64,000 nt of DNA, taken from the NCBI GenBank assembly GCA_037305845.1, contig CP147778.1, positions 3,264,001 through 3,328,000 of the forward strand, read 5' to 3'. The stretch comes from Candidatus Freyarchaeum deiterrae (GTDB taxonomy: Archaea; Asgardarchaeota; Jordiarchaeia; Jordiarchaeales; Jordiarchaeaceae). The position numbers were made by a program, and so were the translations under genes. Under the pieces are notes generated by a model that worked only from the letters and a program-made list of their open reading frames with translations, had not been told where the DNA came from and did not search any database. Shown here piece after piece: positions 44,761 to 64,000 of this stretch (its first letter is position 1; every line of letters starts with the position of its first letter).

Positions 44761-47601
44761 TTAGCTGCTACCAATGAAGAGGGCTCCTTTTCCAATGGCA
44801 AGAGCAATTGATGAGTTTCCTCTCTGGATAGTTAGAGTGACTCTTCCGAGTGCACCCTCACCAACGTATACATCCAGATTCCCTGTCTTCAAGTGTTTTA
44901 CAATGTTCCATGATGCTGACTGGCCGCTTATCTCTATTTTGATAGTGTTCTCGGAGAGGTGTAGGTCACCTTTTCCGATGAATAATTGTCCACTGATTTG
45001 CAGTGCTCCCATGCCAGTAAATACTTCTTCAACTGGTACCTTTGCTCCCAGCATAAAGTAGGAGAATCCCGAAACCTCTACCGTAACGGTTTTCGACGCT
45101 GTGTTCACCACACTGGGTAATTCAACCCACTTCATGTTTTGTTCGTCCCATTGGAAAACTGTAAGGTTCTGCTCACTGACACCAGCCGGAACCTCGTCAT
45201 CGGTGTAATGGAATACCAAAGTTGCATTGATGGACTCGTTTGATTCAGCCCTAATGTAGTTCAGTGGAATGACTCCTTTTGGAAGAGTGGCACTTGGAGG
45301 CGGTGAGTTTCCCCAAGTATTCAAGGTTGTTGGAACGGGTGTTGTTCCCGAAATCTCAACACCAGCCTCCTCAACTGCATTTACTAGAAAGTTTCCGTCG
45401 ACATATGCGGTATTATGAGTAGTGCTGTTCAATGGTGTTCCTAAGAGGTTTCCTCCAAAGAGAATTGGTGACCAGTATGCAACTAGAGTCGGCGGTGGTA
45501 ATGCTAAGTTGGCAGTGGTTATAGCTCTGAGTGTGTAGGTCATTGTCACAGAACTACCGCTTGCGATATCCATTTTCATAAAGTTTGAGCCACTAACTAG
45601 TTCAAACGCGTCTTGTGGATACCAGTCAAAGGCATAAATTGTCTGATCGGTTAAACCAAGATTCTTCACTTTAACGCTGACAGAGACCTCGTCTCCAGGA
45701 TTGACATTGACTGTCTCAGGAGTCTTTTCAAACTCGATGTAAATGGCGTTAGATGGACGAACACCGGGCATAAGCACTGGACTTGGTTGAGGCATCAAAG
45801 AAGCTACTCCATTATTGTAGAATATTTGAGAGCTGGCGATACTTTCAGGACCGAGTCCTGTGTGTACTGAGCCAAGTAATGGTAAATCGTATCTCATTGT
45901 CTGATTCCCTACAATAGAAGATCCTGCTGGAATATCTCCTAAGAACATTTGAAATTGACTAGAAAGAGATGTGGTAATAGTAGGTATAGTAATATTTGAA
46001 TCAATAATTCCTCCAGCTAGTGGAATGATAGGAGGACTGGATGCAGTTACATTTGTTGCAGTCTGTGTGCCCACGTTTCTGATAGTATAGATGCCTGAAA
46101 AAACATCGTTGGGATTCAGAACCCATTTTGAATAGTCTACGGAAACGATAATATTAGGCCCGGGTATACCTACGTTATAAGAGAACTGCGAAATTATACC
46201 AAAGTTTACTAGTCCATTCGAAGCTCTACGCCAATTATACACCGACGAAAACTGTGTCGTACCTATGGAATTTGCAACAACATTGAACGCTAGTGTCTCA
46301 TTTTGTCCCACGTCTATCTCATCGAAATAGAAGGACACCCCGCTGCTAGGATAAGGCAATCCACTTGAGAAATACATAATATTCGTGTTATAACAGTAGA
46401 CATTGCCGCTGATGTTAAAAGCGTTGGAGGTTCCCACGTTTCTTATGGTGAGATAAAGTGTGCCGTTGTCCCCCGGGTTCATGTTCCAGTTTGACATATC
46501 GTAGTATACAACTATGTATGGAACACCGGTCTCCAAAGTATATGTAATGTTGAAATTATCGGCGTTCACGTCGGAATATGCATTGTAGCTGAATAATGGT
46601 TGGGTATAACCTCCCATTATTGAACCAGGGTAAAATCCGGTGAGGCTTGTAACATTGCTGTTTACTGGGGGATACAGGTTGATTGTTACTGGGCTTTTTA
46701 TTGTCTCGTTACTTGGCGCAAAGAGTGAGCCTAGAGTGTAACTATATGTATTTCCGTTCACGCTTGTCTGATTTTCAAGAACCGAGCCAACCTGTACCAG
46801 TGCATTCCAAGTCAGTTGTGGTGGGTATACATTGAAATTGTAAGCCATGGTATCAAATAGTGCGATGTATTTTTCGTTAGATGATTCTTGGGCAATGCTT
46901 TGAGCTAGAGTGCCTTCCGGAAGAAGTGATTCAAGATAATTATATGTAGTTACTGAATCATTTAGAGAAGTCATCAATAAGTAACCAATGGTTATGTTAC
47001 CTCCCATAGGAGCAGGATATGGAATGCTTGTGAACTGTGCAGTTAACTCTCTGAAACTCAATCCGAGGGATGCAAGCTTCTCTATTAATGCCTGAGATAT
47101 TTGTTGCGCTGTCTGGTTACAAGCAGTAATATTTGAACCAACCATCTCAACCATCACTAAGCCTACTGTCTCATTAATCACAGATATACCAAATGGTCCA
47201 GAAACTAGGCTTCCTGTCATTGGCGCGAAGAGATACGAGGTGTGAGGAGCAGTAGCATTAACACCCTCCTCCTGAACTTGTACTTGTATACCTGCATAAG
47301 CGTATACTACACCTGGAAAGCTCGAGAGGTCTGGAAGACCGAAGAATGATCCGTTAAATGTGGAGGCTGCTGCGACGTCTGCGGAGTTATCAATGGCAGA
47401 TAAGTAAACCGTCAATTGCTGTGATACTAGATTTCCAAACACTGGCTGATCAAGGGCTGTCTGTAGTGTTGTTGATGTTGTTGAATCATTTGTTGGGGCT
47501 ACTGGTAGTGCGAGAGTGTTAGCATTGTGGAATAGAGGTATGAGTGTTACCAGCAATAAAACAGTCATCACTGCGATTGCAATTTTTTTCCTTCCCGTCA
47601 A
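44761..47601 (-). CDS. Large secreted surface glycoprotein with three CARDB/Ig-like repeats
   Basis: Signal peptide; repeats 'NPGD....LTIRNVGT..A.N', 'NPND....YTIRNVGT..A.N', 'NPGD....VKVKNLG'; many N-x-S/T sequons; C-terminal 'L.VFQWDE...W...PS.V......V.V...GFS.F'. Confidence 0.8.
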   Translation of the reverse strand: MTGRKKIAIAVMTVLLLVTLIPLFHNANTLALPVAPTNDSTTSTTLQTALDQPVFGNLVSQQLTVYLSAIDNSADVAAASTFNGSFFGLPDLSSFPGVVYAYAGIQVQVQEEGVNATAPHTSYLFAPMTGSLVSGPFGISVINETVGLVMVEMVGSNITACNQTAQQISQALIEKLASLGLSFRELTAQFTSIPYPAPMGGNITIGYLLMTSLNDSVTTYNYLESLLPEGTLAQSIAQESSNEKYIALFDTMAYNFNVYPPQLTWNALVQVGSVLENQTSVNGNTYSYTLGSLFAPSNETIKSPVTINLYPPVNSNVTSLTGFYPGSIMGGYTQPLFSYNAYSDVNADNFNITYTLETGVPYIVVYYDMSNWNMNPGDNGTLYLTIRNVGTSNAFNISGNVYCYNTNIMYFSSGLPYPSSGVSFYFDEIDVGQNETLAFNVVANSIGTTQFSSVYNWRRASNGLVNFGIISQFSYNVGIPGPNIIVSVDYSKWVLNPNDVFSGIYTIRNVGTQTATNVTASSPPIIPLAGGIIDSNITIPTITTSLSSQFQMFLGDIPAGSSIVGNQTMRYDLPLLGSVHTGLGPESIASSQIFYNNGVASLMPQPSPVLMPGVRPSNAIYIEFEKTPETVNVNPGDEVSVSVKVKNLGLTDQTIYAFDWYPQDAFELVSGSNFMKMDIASGSSVTMTYTLRAITTANLALPPPTLVAYWSPILFGGNLLGTPLNSTTHNTAYVDGNFLVNAVEEAGVEISGTTPVPTTLNTWGNSPPPSATLPKGVIPLNYIRAESNESINATLVFHYTDDEVPAGVSEQNLTVFQWDEQNMKWVELPSVVNTASKTVTVEVSGFSYFMLGAKVPVEEVFTGMGALQISGQLFIGKGDLHLSENTIKIEISGQSASWNIVKHLKTGNLDVYVGEGALGRVTLTIQRGNSSIALAIGKGALFIGSS

Positions 47602-56052: not shown

Positions 56053-59000
56053 ATGAAAAAGAGGGGAATACTAGTAATCATAATGATTCTTCTTCTAACA
56101 ATTTCGACACTTGTTGTACTTTCCGCATCAAACTCGAACTTTTCACCAATATTCCTAAACTCCCCCCAAAATAACATAGGAATAAGCACAAAATCATACA
56201 GCGGAAGCGGAACCCAGTTAAACGCAACACTCTACATAACAAACACTTACAATAATACACCGAATGCCACAAACACAATCTCCAATATATATGTTCCATC
56301 CCCTAGCGGTTGGGAAATCCTCAGGTCAAATCTGACTCTTTCTAATATTACTGCCCCAAATACAACCCTAGCATCGAATTACACCACTACTAACGCTACT
56401 TTGGATCTTAGCAATTTAACTGCGATGTCATTCCAACTGACAAACAATGCCTATCTGGACAATATCAGCGCTCAATTGAATGCAACTAATCCACCACCCA
56501 CTGCGAACTTTTATGTTTACAGTGCAGCCAATAACGGTGGGAAACCAATACCACTGCTTTTGATTGCATCCAACACTAGTGGTATTTCAATTCCAAGTGG
56601 AAATACTTGGGTTAATGCTAGCTTCGGACATCAATTTTTGAATATTTCGACAACATATAACAACACCTTTTTCATAGGCATTTGGCAGAGTTCGGGCCCT
56701 AAGGCTCCTCTGTGGAATGCTGTACAAGAATCTTCACCCCCTGGGAATGGATATGTTTACAATAATACTGGCTCAAGTTGGGTAGAAGTCCAAAATTATG
56801 ACTGTCAACTCGTAGTTAACGTTAGTGCAAGTAATAATACGCCAGCTGATAGTGCCTTCCCCTCAGAGATAGGATTAACCATTAACGGTTCACCGGTTCA
56901 GAATAGCAGTAAGGGTAACGGAGTATGGATTAATAGTACCGCAACTTCTGGCACAAATGGGTACGTTTTTTATGATGTGAATTCAACTTGGATGTCTACT
57001 GTGAGTTTCTCTTACATTTGGAATATTACTATGAGCAGGAATGCATCTGTTAGTGCACTCACTAATTTTTATGTTAGCCTTAATACTGGTGCTTCTTGGA
57101 ATATTACTGTGAATGCTGCTGGTAGTGACGGCTTCCCGCTGACCAATGGTGCTAATCACATAAACATCACAGGGACTCCCTCAGACTGGAATTTTACAAA
57201 TTCGATGGTTTATAACGTGTCTGGCAGCCAGTGGATTAATCTTGATTCTCGCCCACCTGATAATATCAGTTTCACTGCCGGTAATGGTACTTGGATTGTG
57301 AACTGCACAGCTCCTAACTATGTTTCCAGCATAGGCTTTTGGGTTGGTGGGGTTCCGGTTGCAAACGCGACCCTATACGACAACCTTAATATTACGGTGA
57401 ACTTTGCTGCCTTGGTTAACGGTTCCGCTAACCTAAGCATCTACGATTCATTTCAGATTCTGAATCATACGGAGGTAAAAACTGTAACTTCTTCTTCAAG
57501 CACTTGGTTTACTTGGAATGTTAGTAATAATGCCACTTCCACTGGACCATATAATGTAACCATCAGTTTTAAGGATGGATCGGTAGTCGGATACAATGAA
57601 ACATCTCTTTTGATTGTGCCTCTAACGAATACTTCTCTCGCCGTGACCAGTTATCCGCCCAACGTTGAGTACCCTGGCCCTGTTCCCATAACTCTTTACT
57701 ATAACAATACGGATAACAATAGCGGTGTAGCGGGGGCAACTATCACTGCCTATTTCACAAACTCAACATCCGCAACGATTCAGGGGCTTATCACTGATTA
57801 TGGAAACGGCACTTACAGTCTTAATTTAAATTTCAGTACAGACATTGGCATCCTTAGCGTGAAGTTCAATGCTAGCAATGTAAGACTCTTCAACTCGAGT
57901 GTTTCCAGTCCAATCCAGGTTAACTATACGCAGGCATTGGTTAGTATTCAGCAGTTGAGTACACCTTCAAGTGTTCCACTTGGTACCAGCTTGGTGGTTG
58001 AGGCTCAGCTATTGTATAATTCCAGCGGTCTTCCTGTTGCTGTTGGTGAGACTGTTTATTTCAATTTTTCAGTGAGATTTGGTGACAATTCAAGCACAAT
58101 TCTTCCAAGTAGTGGCCCAACTAATAGTACGGGTTGGGCAAAAGGTACTATTCAGGTGCCAAGTAATGCTGTTGAGCTAAATGTCACTGCTTATTACATC
58201 GGTAAAACTACCGTTTCTGGAGCAACAAGTTCTACGAACTCCGTTACTTTAACAAGTGCTCCGGTTAACCCCCCGGATACTGGTTTAGCTGCGTTGATGT
58301 TTCTTATTCTGACGCAGCAGAATCAGAACTCTCTGCTTTATCCTATTCTGGGGGTTGTAATCGGCTCTGTAGTAGCGGTTTTCGTGATAACTGATAGAGC
58401 GCGTAGGAAACACGAGGTTCCTCTAAAGGCTTTGGCTAGTCTTGAGAATATTATTGTGGATCACATTCTCAGCGGCGTCACAATTTGGGCTTTTGACTTC
58501 TTAAAGATGGAACAGGACGCAGTTCTGGTTTCTGGTTTCATGTCAGCGGTCAAGTCCTTCTTGGGAGAGATGAAGAAGGGCGGTCTGAGGAAATTGGAGA
58601 CAGAGTTTGGAACATTCATTAGAGAGGATGGAGAACTTCTGACCGTTACTTGTATCACAAGTGGTAGCACTCAAGAGGAAGAGAAATGGATCAGAGAAAA
58701 GCTGCACAGCTTCGTGGCAACTGCCGAGCAGCAAAACTGGGACAGACTCGTGAACTGGAGTGGCGAAGTTTCACACTTCAGATCGAAATTCTTGAAGACC
58801 CTGTCATCGTTGATCGATTTAGAGAAGGCGGAGCAGCTTCAGAGAGAGAAGGTTCTAAAAATACTTAAGGAAAGAGAGCGTCTTCAGGCGGAGCTCAATA
58901 ATCTGGGTTCAAAGCTGGAAACTCTTAACCAGCAACTCTCCGGAGGGATAATTGGCGAAGGGGAGTTTGAAGCTCGGAGGACCGAGATAGAACCGAAGTA

Positions 59001-59268
59001 CGACAAAATTCAGATGGACTACGTCCGTGCCAGTATCCTTCTATCAAAGATACCCTACACACTAGAAACTGTGTGGGAGACACCGAAAACCCATGAGGAA
59101 ATAGAAAAGATAAGGGACAAATTCATTGAAATCACCATGGAGATAGATTCGCTGCAAAGGAAAGAGCAAATAGGCCGCATAAGTTCCAAAGAATTAAAAC
59201 ATAAAGAAAATCTTAGGAAGGAGCTAACGGCTCTCATAGAAAAACTGGATAAAAGGCAAGCAGAATAA
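56053..59268 (+). CDS. Single-pass surface glycoprotein with cytoplasmic longin-like domain and helical hairpins
   Basis: Signal peptide; ~730-aa N/S/T-rich beta ectodomain; TM 'LLYPILGVVIGSVVAVFVIT'; then 'NIIV.H..SG..IW.FDF....D..LVSGF.SAV.SF..E'; charged helical C-terminus. Confidence 0.75.
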   Translation: MKKRGILVIIMILLLTISTLVVLSASNSNFSPIFLNSPQNNIGISTKSYSGSGTQLNATLYITNTYNNTPNATNTISNIYVPSPSGWEILRSNLTLSNITAPNTTLASNYTTTNATLDLSNLTAMSFQLTNNAYLDNISAQLNATNPPPTANFYVYSAANNGGKPIPLLLIASNTSGISIPSGNTWVNASFGHQFLNISTTYNNTFFIGIWQSSGPKAPLWNAVQESSPPGNGYVYNNTGSSWVEVQNYDCQLVVNVSASNNTPADSAFPSEIGLTINGSPVQNSSKGNGVWINSTATSGTNGYVFYDVNSTWMSTVSFSYIWNITMSRNASVSALTNFYVSLNTGASWNITVNAAGSDGFPLTNGANHINITGTPSDWNFTNSMVYNVSGSQWINLDSRPPDNISFTAGNGTWIVNCTAPNYVSSIGFWVGGVPVANATLYDNLNITVNFAALVNGSANLSIYDSFQILNHTEVKTVTSSSSTWFTWNVSNNATSTGPYNVTISFKDGSVVGYNETSLLIVPLTNTSLAVTSYPPNVEYPGPVPITLYYNNTDNNSGVAGATITAYFTNSTSATIQGLITDYGNGTYSLNLNFSTDIGILSVKFNASNVRLFNSSVSSPIQVNYTQALVSIQQLSTPSSVPLGTSLVVEAQLLYNSSGLPVAVGETVYFNFSVRFGDNSSTILPSSGPTNSTGWAKGTIQVPSNAVELNVTAYYIGKTTVSGATSSTNSVTLTSAPVNPPDTGLAALMFLILTQQNQNSLLYPILGVVIGSVVAVFVITDRARRKHEVPLKALASLENIIVDHILSGVTIWAFDFLKMEQDAVLVSGFMSAVKSFLGEMKKGGLRKLETEFGTFIREDGELLTVTCITSGSTQEEEKWIREKLHSFVATAEQQNWDRLVNWSGEVSHFRSKFLKTLSSLIDLEKAEQLQREKVLKILKERERLQAELNNLGSKLETLNQQLSGGIIGEGEFEARRTEIEPKYDKIQMDYVRASILLSKIPYTLETVWETPKTHEEIEKIRDKFIEITMEIDSLQRKEQIGRISSKELKHKENLRKELTALIEKLDKRQAE

Positions 59269-59348
59269 TTAAGCCTTTTCTAACTTAATTTCTAATTTTT
59301 CTTCTTTTTTGAGAATGTATCTTCTTGTATTAAAGCTAGTAGTTATTT

Positions 59349-60779
59349 TCAGGTATTCATTATTTTCGGGCCGAATGGGCAGGAAACATCAGGTCCCAGC
59401 CAGTCTCCACCAGTTATGTACGCAGTGTATCTGCAACCGCCGCATATACTCTTGTATGTGCATTTTTTACAAGCACCTTTTAGCTCCTTTCGGTTTCTTA
59501 TGTAATTTAGTACTTCGTTGTGCATCCAGATCTCTTCCAAGCTCTGTTCAAGAAGGTTTCCCAATTTTATTGGGGCGGGGACACAGGGAAGCAGGTCTCC
59601 AGAAGCGGTGAGCCCCGCGTAGGTTAAGCCGGTCGAGCATCCACTAAAGCCTGCTGCAAGCTTTCTCACAATTTTGGAAACTTCAAGTCCAAATTTATCT
59701 TGAAACATTTTTTCGTGTCCTGATAAAGCTTCACTCACTGTGAGGATTTCACCATTTGAACGCTCGTGACATAGACGAGCATAGTAGGTCATTCCCCGAG
59801 CATAACACTGAATACCAAACCCGTTAACCACGCTTTCATGAAATTTTTTGTATATCGCTTCAAGTGCTCTTATCTTCTCCTTAGGCTTCACGTCAAGGTA
59901 CATTGCGTCGCATCCACGACCAGCAGGTATAAGCCGATTCAAATAGAATCTGGTCACACCAAGTTTCTCCGCCAAATCCATGGTCTCTTCCACCTCGTTA
60001 ACATTCTCACTGTACAGAGTCATGGTGGTGGCCAGCTCGTCAAAGCCCACAGAGGCGCAATTTCTTATTCCCTGAATCGTGGCTTCAAAGCTCCCGGGCC
60101 TGTTTCTCAGGAAATCATGAGTCGCAGGTCTCGCGCCGTCTAAACCTATTTCTACCCGTTTAATACCTGTCTCAGCCAGTCTTTTCGCTGTCTCAGGAGT
60201 CATCATGGTACCATTGGATGCTATTGTGCAAAGCATGCCGCAGTCGTATGCTCTTTTAATCACGTCGAAGATGTCCTTGCGTAGTAGCGGTTCTCCTCCA
60301 GAAAAGGTGAGTATAGCTACTCCTGCGTCGCTCATGTTGTCTACAACCTTGAAGGCTTGAGAAGTAGTTAATTCAGGATGTGAGGAAGCTGGTGAGGAGT
60401 CTTGATGGCAGTGAAGGCAGTTGAGGTTGCATCTATTAGTGAAATTCCAAACAATAGTTATTGGGGCACCGCAGGGCTGTGGATCCCTTAATCCAAAATT
60501 CGCAACACCCTTCACCACGCTGAGCATACACTTACGGATTAGCGAATCTTCCAGCAACCGTTTCACGGTGTTACTATCAATTCCCAGACGGAAGAATATT
60601 AGGCGAATTAGGGGCCTTAGAGCCGTTGATGTTAACAAGCAACTTTCACAGACTGAGTGCCCATTTTTTGAATATTCGTCAAAGACTGAAAGTAATCGTT
60701 CCTGCCCACATTTCTCACAATTACCTGTCAAATAGTGTGAAAGAGCTTTCCAAACAGGGTTAAAAACACTATATTTCAT
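59349..60779 (-). CDS. Radical SAM/SPASM protein with N-terminal CxxC...CxxC extension
   Basis: 'WNFTNRCNLNCLHC', 'FSGGEPL', SPASM 'GC...G.LLPC...C..C....C.GCR..A...C'. Confidence 0.92.
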   Translation of the reverse strand: MKYSVFNPVWKALSHYLTGNCEKCGQERLLSVFDEYSKNGHSVCESCLLTSTALRPLIRLIFFRLGIDSNTVKRLLEDSLIRKCMLSVVKGVANFGLRDPQPCGAPITIVWNFTNRCNLNCLHCHQDSSPASSHPELTTSQAFKVVDNMSDAGVAILTFSGGEPLLRKDIFDVIKRAYDCGMLCTIASNGTMMTPETAKRLAETGIKRVEIGLDGARPATHDFLRNRPGSFEATIQGIRNCASVGFDELATTMTLYSENVNEVEETMDLAEKLGVTRFYLNRLIPAGRGCDAMYLDVKPKEKIRALEAIYKKFHESVVNGFGIQCYARGMTYYARLCHERSNGEILTVSEALSGHEKMFQDKFGLEVSKIVRKLAAGFSGCSTGLTYAGLTASGDLLPCVPAPIKLGNLLEQSLEEIWMHNEVLNYIRNRKELKGACKKCTYKSICGGCRYTAYITGGDWLGPDVSCPFGPKIMNT

Positions 60780-61032
60780 GTTTATTTCTGTCCCCTTAAA
60801 TTAAGCCTTTGAGGGCGTGAAAATGATTCCAGGTAGACTTGTTACAATTTTTTAGGAGAATTAAAACATTTCTATTACGGCTGGACCGCTATCCTTGTAA
60901 CGCTAGCTCTTTCTCTGCAATCCGTAGAATCTATATTTTCCAATTAATCTTCTTAGAATCAGAAATTTTAGGGACTGCAATCACAAATCAGTATTCGATA
61001 TGGGAATAGTTGGCCTGTTACTGCAATAGAAT

Positions 61033-61980
61033 TTATGTGCTTAAGTCGAGAGATAGGGTTTGTAAACATTTTGCTTCTACTAGATCCGATATCGCATTTT
61101 TGAGGATTCCCAACATTTTTTCTCTATTTTTCGGGTCGGTGGCAACTAATCCATATGCTTTTATTCCTATTTGTTTCTCGATTGCCTCTGGAGGGACTGC
61201 GTCTGGTAAATCCTGCTTGTTCGCTACTAATATGACGATTACATCTGGTTTCTCAGTTTTAACCATTTGTAATATTCCTTTAGTTTCCGTTAGGCTTTCA
61301 GCTTTTGAGTCGGTAACAAGTATTGCCACGTCGGCTCCCTCAAGAAAGGGTTGCCAGAGTTTCCTGTAACGAGGCTGGCCCGAAAAGTCCCAAAAAACAA
61401 GTCTCGTGTCCTTGGGTTCAAAATCGAACTCTTTGACATCCACTCCGACCGTTGGAACATAGGCGAAATTCGGTTCTTCTCCTATAATGAGTTTTAGGAG
61501 TGAAGTTTTTCCAACTCCCCCCCGACCGAGGATCGCCATTTTAAAGAAGGGAAACAAAATCTCATCCACCGTCTGTCCAAATTGCTCAAAAATATTTTCT
61601 ACGACTTTTTCCTCTGTCTCTTTATCTGTCTCCTTCTGTTCCACCGCATTCTCTACTTTCTCCACTTTTGAAGCCTTCTTAAGGAGTTTGAATTCTTTCT
61701 GTAATTTTATGAGTTTGTTTGAGACGTACATTTCGTCTTCGTTTTTGTCTGTACACAATAAGAAGATTACATCCTCAAAGAGGGAGTAAGCATATTTCAG
61801 GTTTTCAATACTTATACATTCGATTCTTTCGGTCTGGTCAATGTTTTGTATAAAGGCTGCTAACTCTTTAATAAAATGGGATACGAGTTCATGGTCAAGT
61901 TTAAGTTCTCCGTAAAACTTTTTGAAGAGCTCCGTTCCAGACTTTTCGAGAATGAATACTCCATATATCACTTTCCTCAC
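61033..61980 (-). CDS. Longin-like domain + Arf-like small GTPase fusion, copy 1
   Basis: G1 GRGGVGKTS, G2 PTVG, G3 WDFSGQ, 'RYRKLW', G4 NKQD; N-terminal 'IYGVFILEKSG..LF.KFY'. Confidence 0.85.
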   Translation of the reverse strand: MRKVIYGVFILEKSGTELFKKFYGELKLDHELVSHFIKELAAFIQNIDQTERIECISIENLKYAYSLFEDVIFLLCTDKNEDEMYVSNKLIKLQKEFKLLKKASKVEKVENAVEQKETDKETEEKVVENIFEQFGQTVDEILFPFFKMAILGRGGVGKTSLLKLIIGEEPNFAYVPTVGVDVKEFDFEPKDTRLVFWDFSGQPRYRKLWQPFLEGADVAILVTDSKAESLTETKGILQMVKTEKPDVIVILVANKQDLPDAVPPEAIEKQIGIKAYGLVATDPKNREKMLGILKNAISDLVEAKCLQTLSLDLST

Positions 61981-62066
61981 TTCCGAAAATTTTTAACATT
62001 TATTTGTAAGAGTTCCCTCTTTAGGGGCGGGGTAGTTGACCTGTTAGTGGCAATATAATTTATGTA

Positions 62067-63005
62067 TTAATGTTGGGCGGTTGTTGTTTTAGTTCTAGAT
62101 TCTATTATTTTGTTTATCGTTTCTTTGAGGATTTTCATCATTTTTTCAATGTAGTTTAGGTCGGTTGCAACTAATCCGTGCGCCTTTAGTCCTAAGTATT
62201 TTCCAACTTTTTCCGGAGGAATAGCGTCTGGTAAATCTTGCTTGTTCGCAATTAGTATGATGTTTACCTTCGGTTCTTCTTTCTTAATCAGTTGGTATAT
62301 TCTTTTGGTTTCCTCCAAGTTTTCCACAGTCGAATCGGTGACCAGCACGACAATGTCGGCTCCTTCGAGTAGGGGCTTCCAGAGTTTCCTGTAACGTTGC
62401 TGACCGGAAAAGTCCCAAAAAACAAGTCTCATGTTCTTTGATTCAAAGCCGAACTCTTTAACGTCCACTCCAACTGTTGGGATGTATGTGGGATCCTGCT
62501 CTTCGCCCATGATGAGTTTTCGGATAGTAGTTTTTCCAACCCCTCCCTGTCCCAGGATCACTATTTTAAGGTAGGGGAACAAAATCGCATCCATCTTATC
62601 CTCAAATCCTACTGAAGAATCCTCAGCCGGTATCACTGCATCTGGGTTGATTCCTTCTTTTTCCATGGCAGCCCTGACTGCAGCTGATCTCGGCATGCCC
62701 TTGTGAAGTTTAAGAAATTCCACTTGAACTTTTACTATTTTGTCAGTGAGATATATTTCGTCTTCCTTTTGATCCGAGCATATTACAGAAATCATATCCT
62801 CAAATATAGAGTAAACAAATTTCAGCTTTTCAAGATTCAGAGTACCGATTCTTTCGGTCTGGTCCATGTCTTGTACAAATGATGTTAATTCTGTTACAAA
62901 ACGGAATAAGCGATCTTGGTCAAAGTTGATATTTCCATAAAATTTTTGGTAAAAGTTTCTTCCAAACCTGTCGAATGTGAATACTCCATATATCACTTTT
63001 CTCAC
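62067..63005 (-). CDS. Longin-like domain + Arf-like small GTPase fusion, copy 2
   Basis: GQGGVGKTT, PTVG, WDFSGQ, NKQD; same N-domain. Confidence 0.85.
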   Translation of the reverse strand: MRKVIYGVFTFDRFGRNFYQKFYGNINFDQDRLFRFVTELTSFVQDMDQTERIGTLNLEKLKFVYSIFEDMISVICSDQKEDEIYLTDKIVKVQVEFLKLHKGMPRSAAVRAAMEKEGINPDAVIPAEDSSVGFEDKMDAILFPYLKIVILGQGGVGKTTIRKLIMGEEQDPTYIPTVGVDVKEFGFESKNMRLVFWDFSGQQRYRKLWKPLLEGADIVVLVTDSTVENLEETKRIYQLIKKEEPKVNIILIANKQDLPDAIPPEKVGKYLGLKAHGLVATDLNYIEKMMKILKETINKIIESRTKTTTAQH

Positions 63006-63044
63006 CTTCGAAAACTTTTAACATTTATTTATGAGCCCCCCTCT

Positions 63045-64000
63045 TTAGGGGTGAGTAGGTAACTTGTAGTCGGCAATTAATTCTTTTAGGTTCTGCTTTT
63101 TTGGAGCTTTGACTTTTTGGGATTTTGCTTCTGTTATGTCTTGTATCGTTTTTTTGAGAAGTTCTAGTATTTTTTTTCTGTTTTTTGGGTCGGTGGCGAC
63201 AAATCCGTGTGCTTTCATTCCCAAGTAATTTTCTATTGTCTCTGGAGGAGTTGCGTCCGGCAAATCCTGCTTGTTAGCTACTAATAAGATTTTTATGTCT
63301 GGTTTCTCCGCCTTAATCAGGTCTAATATCCCTTTAGTTTCCGCTAGGTTTTGAATTTTTGAGTCGGTGACTAGTATTGCTATGTCGGCTCCTTCAAGGA
63401 AGGGTTGCCAGAGTTTCCTGTAACGTTGCTGACCGGAAAAGTCCCAAAATACAAGCTTCATTTTCTTGGGTTCAAAATCGAATTCTTTAACGTCCACTCC
63501 AACCGTGGGACTATAAGTTGAATCCTGGTCTTCGCCCATAACTAGTTTTAGTAGCGAAGTTTTTCCAACTCCCCCCTGGCCGAGAATAGCCATTTTAAAG
63601 AAGGGGAATAAAATCTCATCCACGATAAGTTCAAATCTCCCGTAAGAATTCTCTCCGACTCTCTGCGCGATATCTTCATCTTCATCCTCCTGTTCTGTTT
63701 CATCCTCAGCCTTCCCTGCTTTCAATACGTTATCAATGGGTATGAATTCTTTCTGCAATTTTATGAGTTTGTTCGCTATGTACATTTCGTCATCGCTTTT
63801 ATCTATGCATAGCGCGAAGAGCTTAACATCATGAATGGAGTAGACAATTTTCAGGTCTTCAAAACTTAGAGTTTCAATTCTTTCACTGTGGTCAATTTTT
63901 TGTATATAGGCTGCAAAATCTCTCAGCAAACGGAGCGTTAGCTCGTTATCAAATTTAAGATCTTTGTAAAACTTCTGGAAGAGCACTTTTCCAGACCAAT
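63045..64000 (-). CDS. Longin-like domain + Arf-like small GTPase fusion, copy 3; 5' end outside window
   Basis: Frame open to the window edge (..WSGKVLFQKFY); GQGGVGKTS, WDFSGQ, NKQD. Confidence 0.85.
   Translation of the reverse strand, partial: WSGKVLFQKFYKDLKFDNELTLRLLRDFAAYIQKIDHSERIETLSFEDLKIVYSIHDVKLFALCIDKSDDEMYIANKLIKLQKEFIPIDNVLKAGKAEDETEQEDEDEDIAQRVGENSYGRFELIVDEILFPFFKMAILGQGGVGKTSLLKLVMGEDQDSTYSPTVGVDVKEFDFEPKKMKLVFWDFSGQQRYRKLWQPFLEGADIAILVTDSKIQNLAETKGILDLIKAEKPDIKILLVANKQDLPDATPPETIENYLGMKAHGFVATDPKNRKKILELLKKTIQDITEAKSQKVKAPKKQNLKELIADYKLPTHP

Follow-up and report, generated by a model that had tools for sequence, protein, structure and literature searches.

A predicted lectin-headed, longin-tailed surface glycoprotein of Candidatus Freyarchaeum deiterrae and its Arf-like GTPase neighbours

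The single chromosome contig (3,576,204 bp) of Candidatus Freyarchaeum deiterrae (Freyarchaeia) carries, in the stretch of 64,000 nucleotides that we analyzed (positions 3,264,001-3,328,000, here called the window), a gene for a 1071-residue membrane protein, referred to as the receptor, which lies close to three tandem genes for longin-GTPase fusions. A preliminary description of the window had combined these genes into a dedicated signalling locus in which the longin domain of the receptor acts on the GTPases. The parts of that proposal are real, as the topology of the receptor, its longin fold, and the GTPases were all recovered, but the dedicated locus was not. In the best explanation, to which we give about an even chance, the receptor is a surface glycoprotein of adhesin-like build whose tail serves as a scaffold, and it came to lie close to the GTPases by accident, in a region that rearranges and contains many signalling genes. 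For the small GTPases of Asgard archaea, neither regulators nor membrane anchors are known (PMC11914678, PMC10933270), and a single-pass glycoprotein with a cytoplasmic longin domain is a concrete candidate for such a regulator or anchor that can be tested in the form of soluble domains. Fusions of longins with many other domains are already familiar from Asgard archaea (PMC10936438), and no description of a single-pass Asgard glycoprotein with a cytoplasmic longin was found in the searchable literature, whose coverage excludes subscription papers. New aspects are the predicted lectin-like head on an Ig-like stalk and the two tail hairpins, the first of which is steadiness-box-like. The value of the system lies in the receptor family and not in the adjacency, as the gene order is fluid, GTPase fusions are known, and the locus gives no partner identity.

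Topology of the receptor

The receptor gene (window positions 56053-59268, + strand, as are all receptor features below) is an open reading frame for a type I surface glycoprotein with a cytoplasmic longin domain and two helical hairpins. Hydropathy analysis gave hydrophobic peaks solely at residues ~1-25, corresponding to a signal peptide or signal anchor (56053-56127), and at residues ~760-781, corresponding to a single transmembrane helix that is followed by basic residues (58330-58395). The ectodomain (residues 26-745) contains 55 glycosylation sequons versus 23.4 expected from its composition, and the cytoplasmic part contains one versus 0.9 expected. The sequon excess and the two hydrophobic peaks agree with the preliminary assignment of a signal peptide, a sequon-rich ectodomain, and one transmembrane helix, and a type I topology is supported at the sequence level. 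Sequon-rich surface proteins are not rare in this genome, as 43 proteins of at least 600 residues have more than 2.5 sequons per 100 residues, many of them with almost no tail. The receptor itself has no curated match in Pfam or NCBIfam.

The cytoplasmic longin domain

The longin domain comprises residues 796-922 (58438-58818) and was recognized by AlphaFold2, Foldseek, VIA, and alignment, all in agreement with the longin-like cytoplasmic domain that had been suspected. The AlphaFold2 model of the tail was based on an alignment of 59 relatives from a search of 1.84 billion representatives, and it has a mean pLDDT (predicted local distance difference test) of 88.5. The order of secondary structure elements is E-E-H-E-E-E-H-H, with a five-stranded beta-meander that has helix 1 on one side and helices 2-3 on the opposite side, as in the longin superfamily. 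The top-ranked Foldseek rows were all longins (AP sigma, zeta-COP, SRalpha), with weak E-values (best 1e-3) but agreement on a single fold. The first 12 rows of VIA-align were also all longins, with SRalpha on top (Z 11.1, root-mean-square deviation (rmsd) 2.3, 109 residues aligned) and further scores of 10.8 for synbindin and 9.9 for Mon1-Ccz1, and an Atlas feature search of the tail returned unnamed archaeal clusters alone, all below 0.8. The tail thus has the same fold as the longins of the SRalpha-SRbeta, TRAPP C1/C4, Mon1-Ccz1, and Fuzzy-Inturned platforms (PMC3747258); those longins are soluble or peripheral, whereas that of the receptor forms the tail of a glycoprotein that crosses the membrane once and has a 730-residue ectodomain. 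By this likeness, it is a candidate GTPase platform that may act with a partner or have activity as a guanine nucleotide exchange factor or GTPase-activating protein (GAP). In the alignment, the turn between strands 1 and 2 is of an S-G-V/T-G-I type, and no G-P was found in this turn, which is where GAP longins of the NPRL2, FLCN, and SMCR8 class, which also have an arginine finger, carry their GP motif (PMC12290439).

The same comparisons also fit a role without any GTPase, which we regard as rather unlikely. The receptor would then be a structural envelope or adhesion component, and its longin would bind peptide motifs or close on its own coiled coil, in analogy to adaptin sigma and mu subunits or SNAREs, and thereby serve in trafficking or anchoring. 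The best structural matches indeed include the longins of AP sigma/mu, zeta-COP, Sec22, and VAMP7, and the large sequon-rich proteins with almost no tail are in line with a structural function. A longin that is followed by long helices echoes the longin SNAREs, in which the anchor is at the other end. However, less than 1 Z unit separates the longin matches, among which are SRalpha, TRAPP, and Mon1-Ccz1, and therefore the fold alone cannot choose among longin roles. Helix 1 is strongly conserved, and some paralogues have no ectodomain to speak of; both points argue for a binding job in the cytoplasm.

The ectodomain and a possible mode of action

The AlphaFold2 model of the ectodomain (pLDDT 88) is nearly all beta. 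It contains a predicted lectin-like jelly-roll head at residues ~101-260 (56353-56832), which was identified in the model and by VIA, and a stalk of about three Ig/macroglobulin-like beta-sandwiches at residues ~420-735 (57310-58257), which is suggested by the model and structure comparison, with weak Filamin and Invasin_D3 matches in family members. The head can be superposed with the lectin-like region of Clostridioides Cwp84 (4ci7; VIA Z 15.6, rmsd 2.4, 142 residues aligned) and with phage baseplate/tail-tip chains (Z 14.3 and 14.1), and an Atlas search gave an independent but weak Lectin_like lead (0.82). The head shares its fold with phage receptor-binding jelly-rolls, and the arrangement of a head on an Ig-like stalk resembles that of tip-and-stalk adhesins. 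Unlike in Cwp84, there is no protease domain, the identity to the Cwp84 domain is 10%, and Pfam PF18560 (Lectin_like) matches neither the head nor any other protein of the genome; the folded cytoplasmic tail distinguishes the receptor from both Cwp84 and the tip-and-stalk adhesins. The Atlas structure search remained below a TM-score of 0.5 throughout. Foldseek matches of the whole ectodomain to complement C3 were rejected, as they reflect repeated Ig-like domains and not homology (TM-score <0.25, rmsd ~50).

The predicted architecture has the layout of an adhesin, for which a glycan or surface would be the ligand. As a possible mode of action, the Ig-like stalk would keep the lectin-like head at a distance from the membrane, the head would bind this ligand, and the transmembrane helix would carry the position or clustering of the protein inward. 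The longin domain could then pair via helix 1 and strand 3, as known from longin dimers, with another copy, a paralogue, or a soluble longin that has the same helix-1 motif, and the hairpins might bundle the receptor oligomer. A partner in the cytoplasm would dock on the surface of such an oligomer; the likeliest candidate is a G domain from among the ~30 small GTPases of the genome, and this GTPase need not be one of the three encoded nearby.

The neighbouring longin-GTPases and the helix-1 interface

The three GTPase genes are located on the - strand and encode proteins of 315 residues (copy 1, 61033-61980), 312 residues (copy 2, 62067-63005), and 329 residues (copy 3, 63045-64000, with the gene continuing to 64034, as the start codon is 34 nucleotides beyond the window). 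Assignment of copy 1 is based on Clat_adaptor_s above its cut-off (22.9 bits versus 22.5) and a weak Fuz_longin_1 match for the N-terminal domain, on Arf/Roc/Ras matches, and on motifs, and that of copy 2 on profiles, a PDB match, and motifs. By sequence, the N-terminal domains belong to the longin family, and their profile matches that of the receptor longin with 89.8%. In all three, G1-G4 are intact, and G3 (W-D-F-S-G-Q-x-x-x-R-x-x-W) and G4 (NKQD) are Arf-type, which bears out the three tandem longin and small GTPase genes of the preliminary description. Among the sequences in the PDB, Arf6/Arf1 match best (E 1e-17), and the most similar named homologues come from Freyarchaeota/Jordarchaeia. 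A tree built with neither eukaryotic nor labelled references separates them from the Rab-like, Rag-like, and MglA-like proteins of the genome. ArfL as published has no direct relationship to eukaryotic Arf (bioRxiv 2024.02.28.582541), and we use 'Arf-like' as a label for sequence similarity that may cover ArfL or ArfR alike. Asgard longin-GTPase fusions, including the ArfL and ArfR groups, have been published with the same layout of an N-terminal longin and a small GTPase (PMC10933270; PMC11914678; bioRxiv 2020.10.19.343400; bioRxiv 2024.02.28.582541); the genes described here differ from them in being a genus-level tandem expansion with a diverged longin helix 1.

Longins dimerize through strand 3 and helix 1, and the side of the domain that bears helix 1 is also where GTPases dock (PMC3747258). 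The receptors have the helix-1 motif L-x-S-G-F-x-S-A-x-x-S-F. Within its S-G-F-x-S-A core, the G is kept in 24/25 and the A in 21/26 receptor rows, and both are also kept in 13 soluble longins of the genome. In the clade of the tandem-GTPase longins, these positions are mostly Q/H/R and E/D, respectively. Since the GTPase longins lack the small-residue motif, a longin-longin pairing with the receptor is less likely, and the sequences suggest that a receptor longin would more probably find its natural partner in another receptor longin or in one of the soluble longins that carry the motif. A G domain could still dock on a receptor dimer despite the motif loss, and general longin biology makes it plausible that the tail is linked to some small GTPase.

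These data bear directly on the idea of a receptor-to-Arf switch, in which the receptor longin would pair with the N-terminal longin of a neighbouring GTPase, recruit it to the membrane, and change its nucleotide state. It is in favor of this idea that both longins are real and distantly related, and that the G motifs are intact. The N-terminus of the GTPases consists of the longin and an acidic linker and is not the amphipathic membrane helix of eukaryotic Arf or Asgard ArfR, so that a membrane anchor provided in trans could be useful. The proximity of the genes (see below) can be added to these arguments. The diverged helix 1 of the GTPase longins speaks against the pairing, as do separate transcription from convergent genes, the occurrence of receptor or GTPases without the other at the corresponding site in close relatives, and the missing GTPase neighbour in the sister family, and we consider the switch improbable. 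A complex prediction with tail residues 783-1007 and GTPase copy 1 scored 0.00 in two runs in which the controls were not folded, and it counts neither way.

Gene order around the receptor

The receptor and the GTPases are encoded convergently on opposite strands and do not form a co-directional module. Between them lies a gene for a radical SAM/SPASM protein of an AhbD/NirJ-like group (59349-60779, - strand; below every NCBIfam cut-off), which is convergent with the receptor gene with 80 bp from stop to stop, and the distance from the receptor stop to the first GTPase gene is 1765 bp. Elsewhere in the genome, 5/8 receptor paralogues lie 130-219 kb from any longin-GTPase gene.

Our comparison with relatives is descriptive and not statistical, as the genomes are kin and partly fragmented. 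Orthologues of the window gene fall into a single clade (SH-aLRT (Shimodaira-Hasegawa-like approximate likelihood ratio test) 100 in a quick tree). On an 87-kb contig of a close relative (L064), we found the three GTPases, KaiC, two-component genes, the radical SAM gene (90% identical), and a methyltransferase gene (89%), but there is no receptor in the 278-bp gap between the radical SAM and methyltransferase genes, and a different receptor paralogue lies ~12 kb away on the other side. Conversely, L062 (GCA_041862095.1) has the receptor orthologue, the radical SAM gene, and then another receptor, and the 14.7 kb downstream are free of GTPase genes. In G005, the orthologue is 15 kb away from the nearest longin-GTPase gene with about ten unrelated, metabolic genes in between, and the same intervening genes are found on a separate contig of G004. 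In the sister family, there is a single intact receptor without a GTPase gene in the examined flanks, and the GTPases are encoded among housekeeping genes, with the matches in G006 being ~0.5-0.7 Mb away or on another contig. Genes that do travel with the receptor are the convergent radical SAM gene, in several relatives, and upstream PadR/HAAS genes, and there is no evidence for a role of the radical SAM protein in a receptor-GTPase module. With convergent genes and an adjacency that is largely not conserved among these relatives, the dedicated signalling locus lacks support. The case for a receptor-GTPase unit is weak, and the gene order does not support it.

Several points nevertheless weigh against the reading as an adhesin-like protein that came to lie next to the GTPases by accident. 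Only 0.54% of the genes of the genome lie within 2 kb of a longin-GTPase gene, and the chance that at least one of the five receptor sites does so is ~2.6% (estimated post hoc), which is mildly unusual; at 15 kb, the chance is ~15%. Three of the eight paralogues border a single 23-kb region that holds five small GTPase genes, and both the receptor and the longin-GTPase families are expanded in the same genus. The proximity in this genome, the expansion of both families, and the distance of still only 15 kb in G005 also belong to the arguments for a direct pairing. Asgard GTPases are generally not in operons with regulators (PMC10933270), and a broken gene order is therefore compatible with binding. 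The contigs of G001 and G002 are too short to be informative. Furthermore, the jelly-roll fold of the head is no proof of glycan binding, and the ligand, oligomer, and partner of the receptor are putative.

Beyond the window (chromosome positions 3328264-3343156), there are genes for an unknown 302-residue protein, a Rag-like GTPase, a TackOD1-AsnC protein, KaiC-like ATPases, a Rab-like GTPase, and a longin-like-TackOD1 fusion, as well as two more receptor paralogues, and the content and order of these genes vary between relatives. In this genome (G000), L061, and L063, a second copy of the receptor lies behind the longin-TackOD1 gene. The idea that this copy is the true island member was weakened, as in G001, G003, and G005 the longin-TackOD1 gene is directly followed by OsmC.

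The tail hairpins

The longin domain is followed by hairpin 1 (residues 923-998, 58819-59046), which by AlphaFold2 and profile comparison is of a SHOCT/CdvA/steadiness-box class, and by hairpin 2 (residues 1011-1070, 59083-59262), which appears to be a degenerate repeat of hairpin 1 (profile comparison probability 47%). SHOCT matches were obtained for hairpin 1 in 12/55 members. Like the ESCRT-I steadiness box and the CdvA hairpin, hairpin 1 has a Helix-G-x-I-x-x-x-E/D-Y/F-helix form. Its profile matched an Asgard Vps23 steadiness-box profile with a probability of 84.6% and a score of 30.7 over 29 aligned columns, while the highest control scores were 18.9 and 20.9 for 300 column shuffles, and the reversed profile gave 10.7. 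As direct searches with hidden Markov models (HMMs) were not significant, with Vps23 ranking 214/259 with the hairpin HMM and the receptors being missed by the Vps23-box HMM at E 1, the resemblance of hairpin 1 to the steadiness box is a weak likeness at class level only.

From this likeness, one could propose that the tail couples a surface protein to ESCRT-I-like remodelling or sorting, with hairpin 1 as a steadiness box that bundles with Vps23/Vps28 or CdvA-like hairpins. Apart from the profile match and its controls, this is in line with the hairpin-1 HMM finding a Zn-ribbon-CdvA protein of the genome (E 2e-4) and two other surface proteins, whose own hairpins match the Vps23 box (2e-13 and 1e-9), with a genome that encodes Vps23 and an EAP30 protein side by side, and with published Asgard multidomain proteins that join ESCRT-I parts with longin or Ig-like domains (PMC10936438). 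In contrast to the steadiness-box proteins of that study, the hairpin of the receptor is on a membrane glycoprotein and comes without a UEV or stalk domain. The alignment covers only the 29 columns, the motif is shared with generic SHOCT and GvpG models, the direct searches failed in both directions, and there was no Vps23_core or Mod_r match among the 25 listed families; we thus judge an ESCRT-I coupling of the receptor to be unlikely.

The two surface proteins are large and sequon-rich (chromosome positions 345941-351013 and 3413988-3415961, both - strand), and by eye, zinc ribbons and a RING-like C-terminal domain follow their tail hairpin. Two related tails (364676-368650 and 3009707-3013444) end in the RING-like domain but lack the hairpin. 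The hairpin/RING-like proteins are candidates for a link from surface proteins to ubiquitin and ESCRT-I and represent a stronger steadiness-box case than the receptor. An IFT52_GIFT-domain protein (1992076-1993395; E 1e-13) also has a C-terminal hairpin that is matched by the receptor hairpin HMM (E 4e-6).

The receptor family

The genome encodes eight receptor paralogues at five sites. The longin is their most conserved part, with 56-70% identity versus 30-56% for full ectodomains. Two paralogues of 340 and 326 residues (548349-549371 and 3339244-3340224) are almost without ectodomain and keep the signal/transmembrane region, longin, and hairpin tail; they are possibly co-receptors or decoys. 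The longin-plus-hairpin form was present in 11/11 searched genomes of the order, and other Asgard groups gave only weaker matches at the level of the longin, some of them in large membrane proteins. A transmembrane-longin-GTPase fusion was not found in the small sample of ten distant relatives.

In the most far-reaching interpretation, which we would not expect to hold, this is a prokaryotic receptor family whose lectin-like head senses a glycan and whose longin and steadiness-box tail recruits Arf-like GTPases, possibly the three described here, and ESCRT-I-type machinery, with the ectodomain-less paralogues as co-receptors or decoys. If true, it would be a receptor-to-small-GTPase pathway in an archaeon.

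Three genomes of the sister family have the receptor followed on the same strand by a conserved gene for 270-290 residues with a weak DUF3786 match (L051:8648-9529, L056:1476-2348, and L057:2935-3756, each 3' of the receptor), for which this genome has no counterpart. In G006 (L051:12533-15243), fragments of a second, apparently broken receptor gene lie directly upstream of the intact one.

Two further observations concern other genes. The window also encodes a 946-residue secreted or surface protein with CARDB and TRAP_beta-like Ig domains (44761-47601, - strand). At chromosome positions 2037217-2039507, there is a co-directional trio that encodes a 360-residue protein with an NPRL2-like start lacking G-P, a 282-residue longin-GTPase with homologues across Asgard groups, and a 110-residue hairpin protein with a weak steadiness-box profile match (E 0.02), and the first two of these genes are adjacent in the sister family too (L052).

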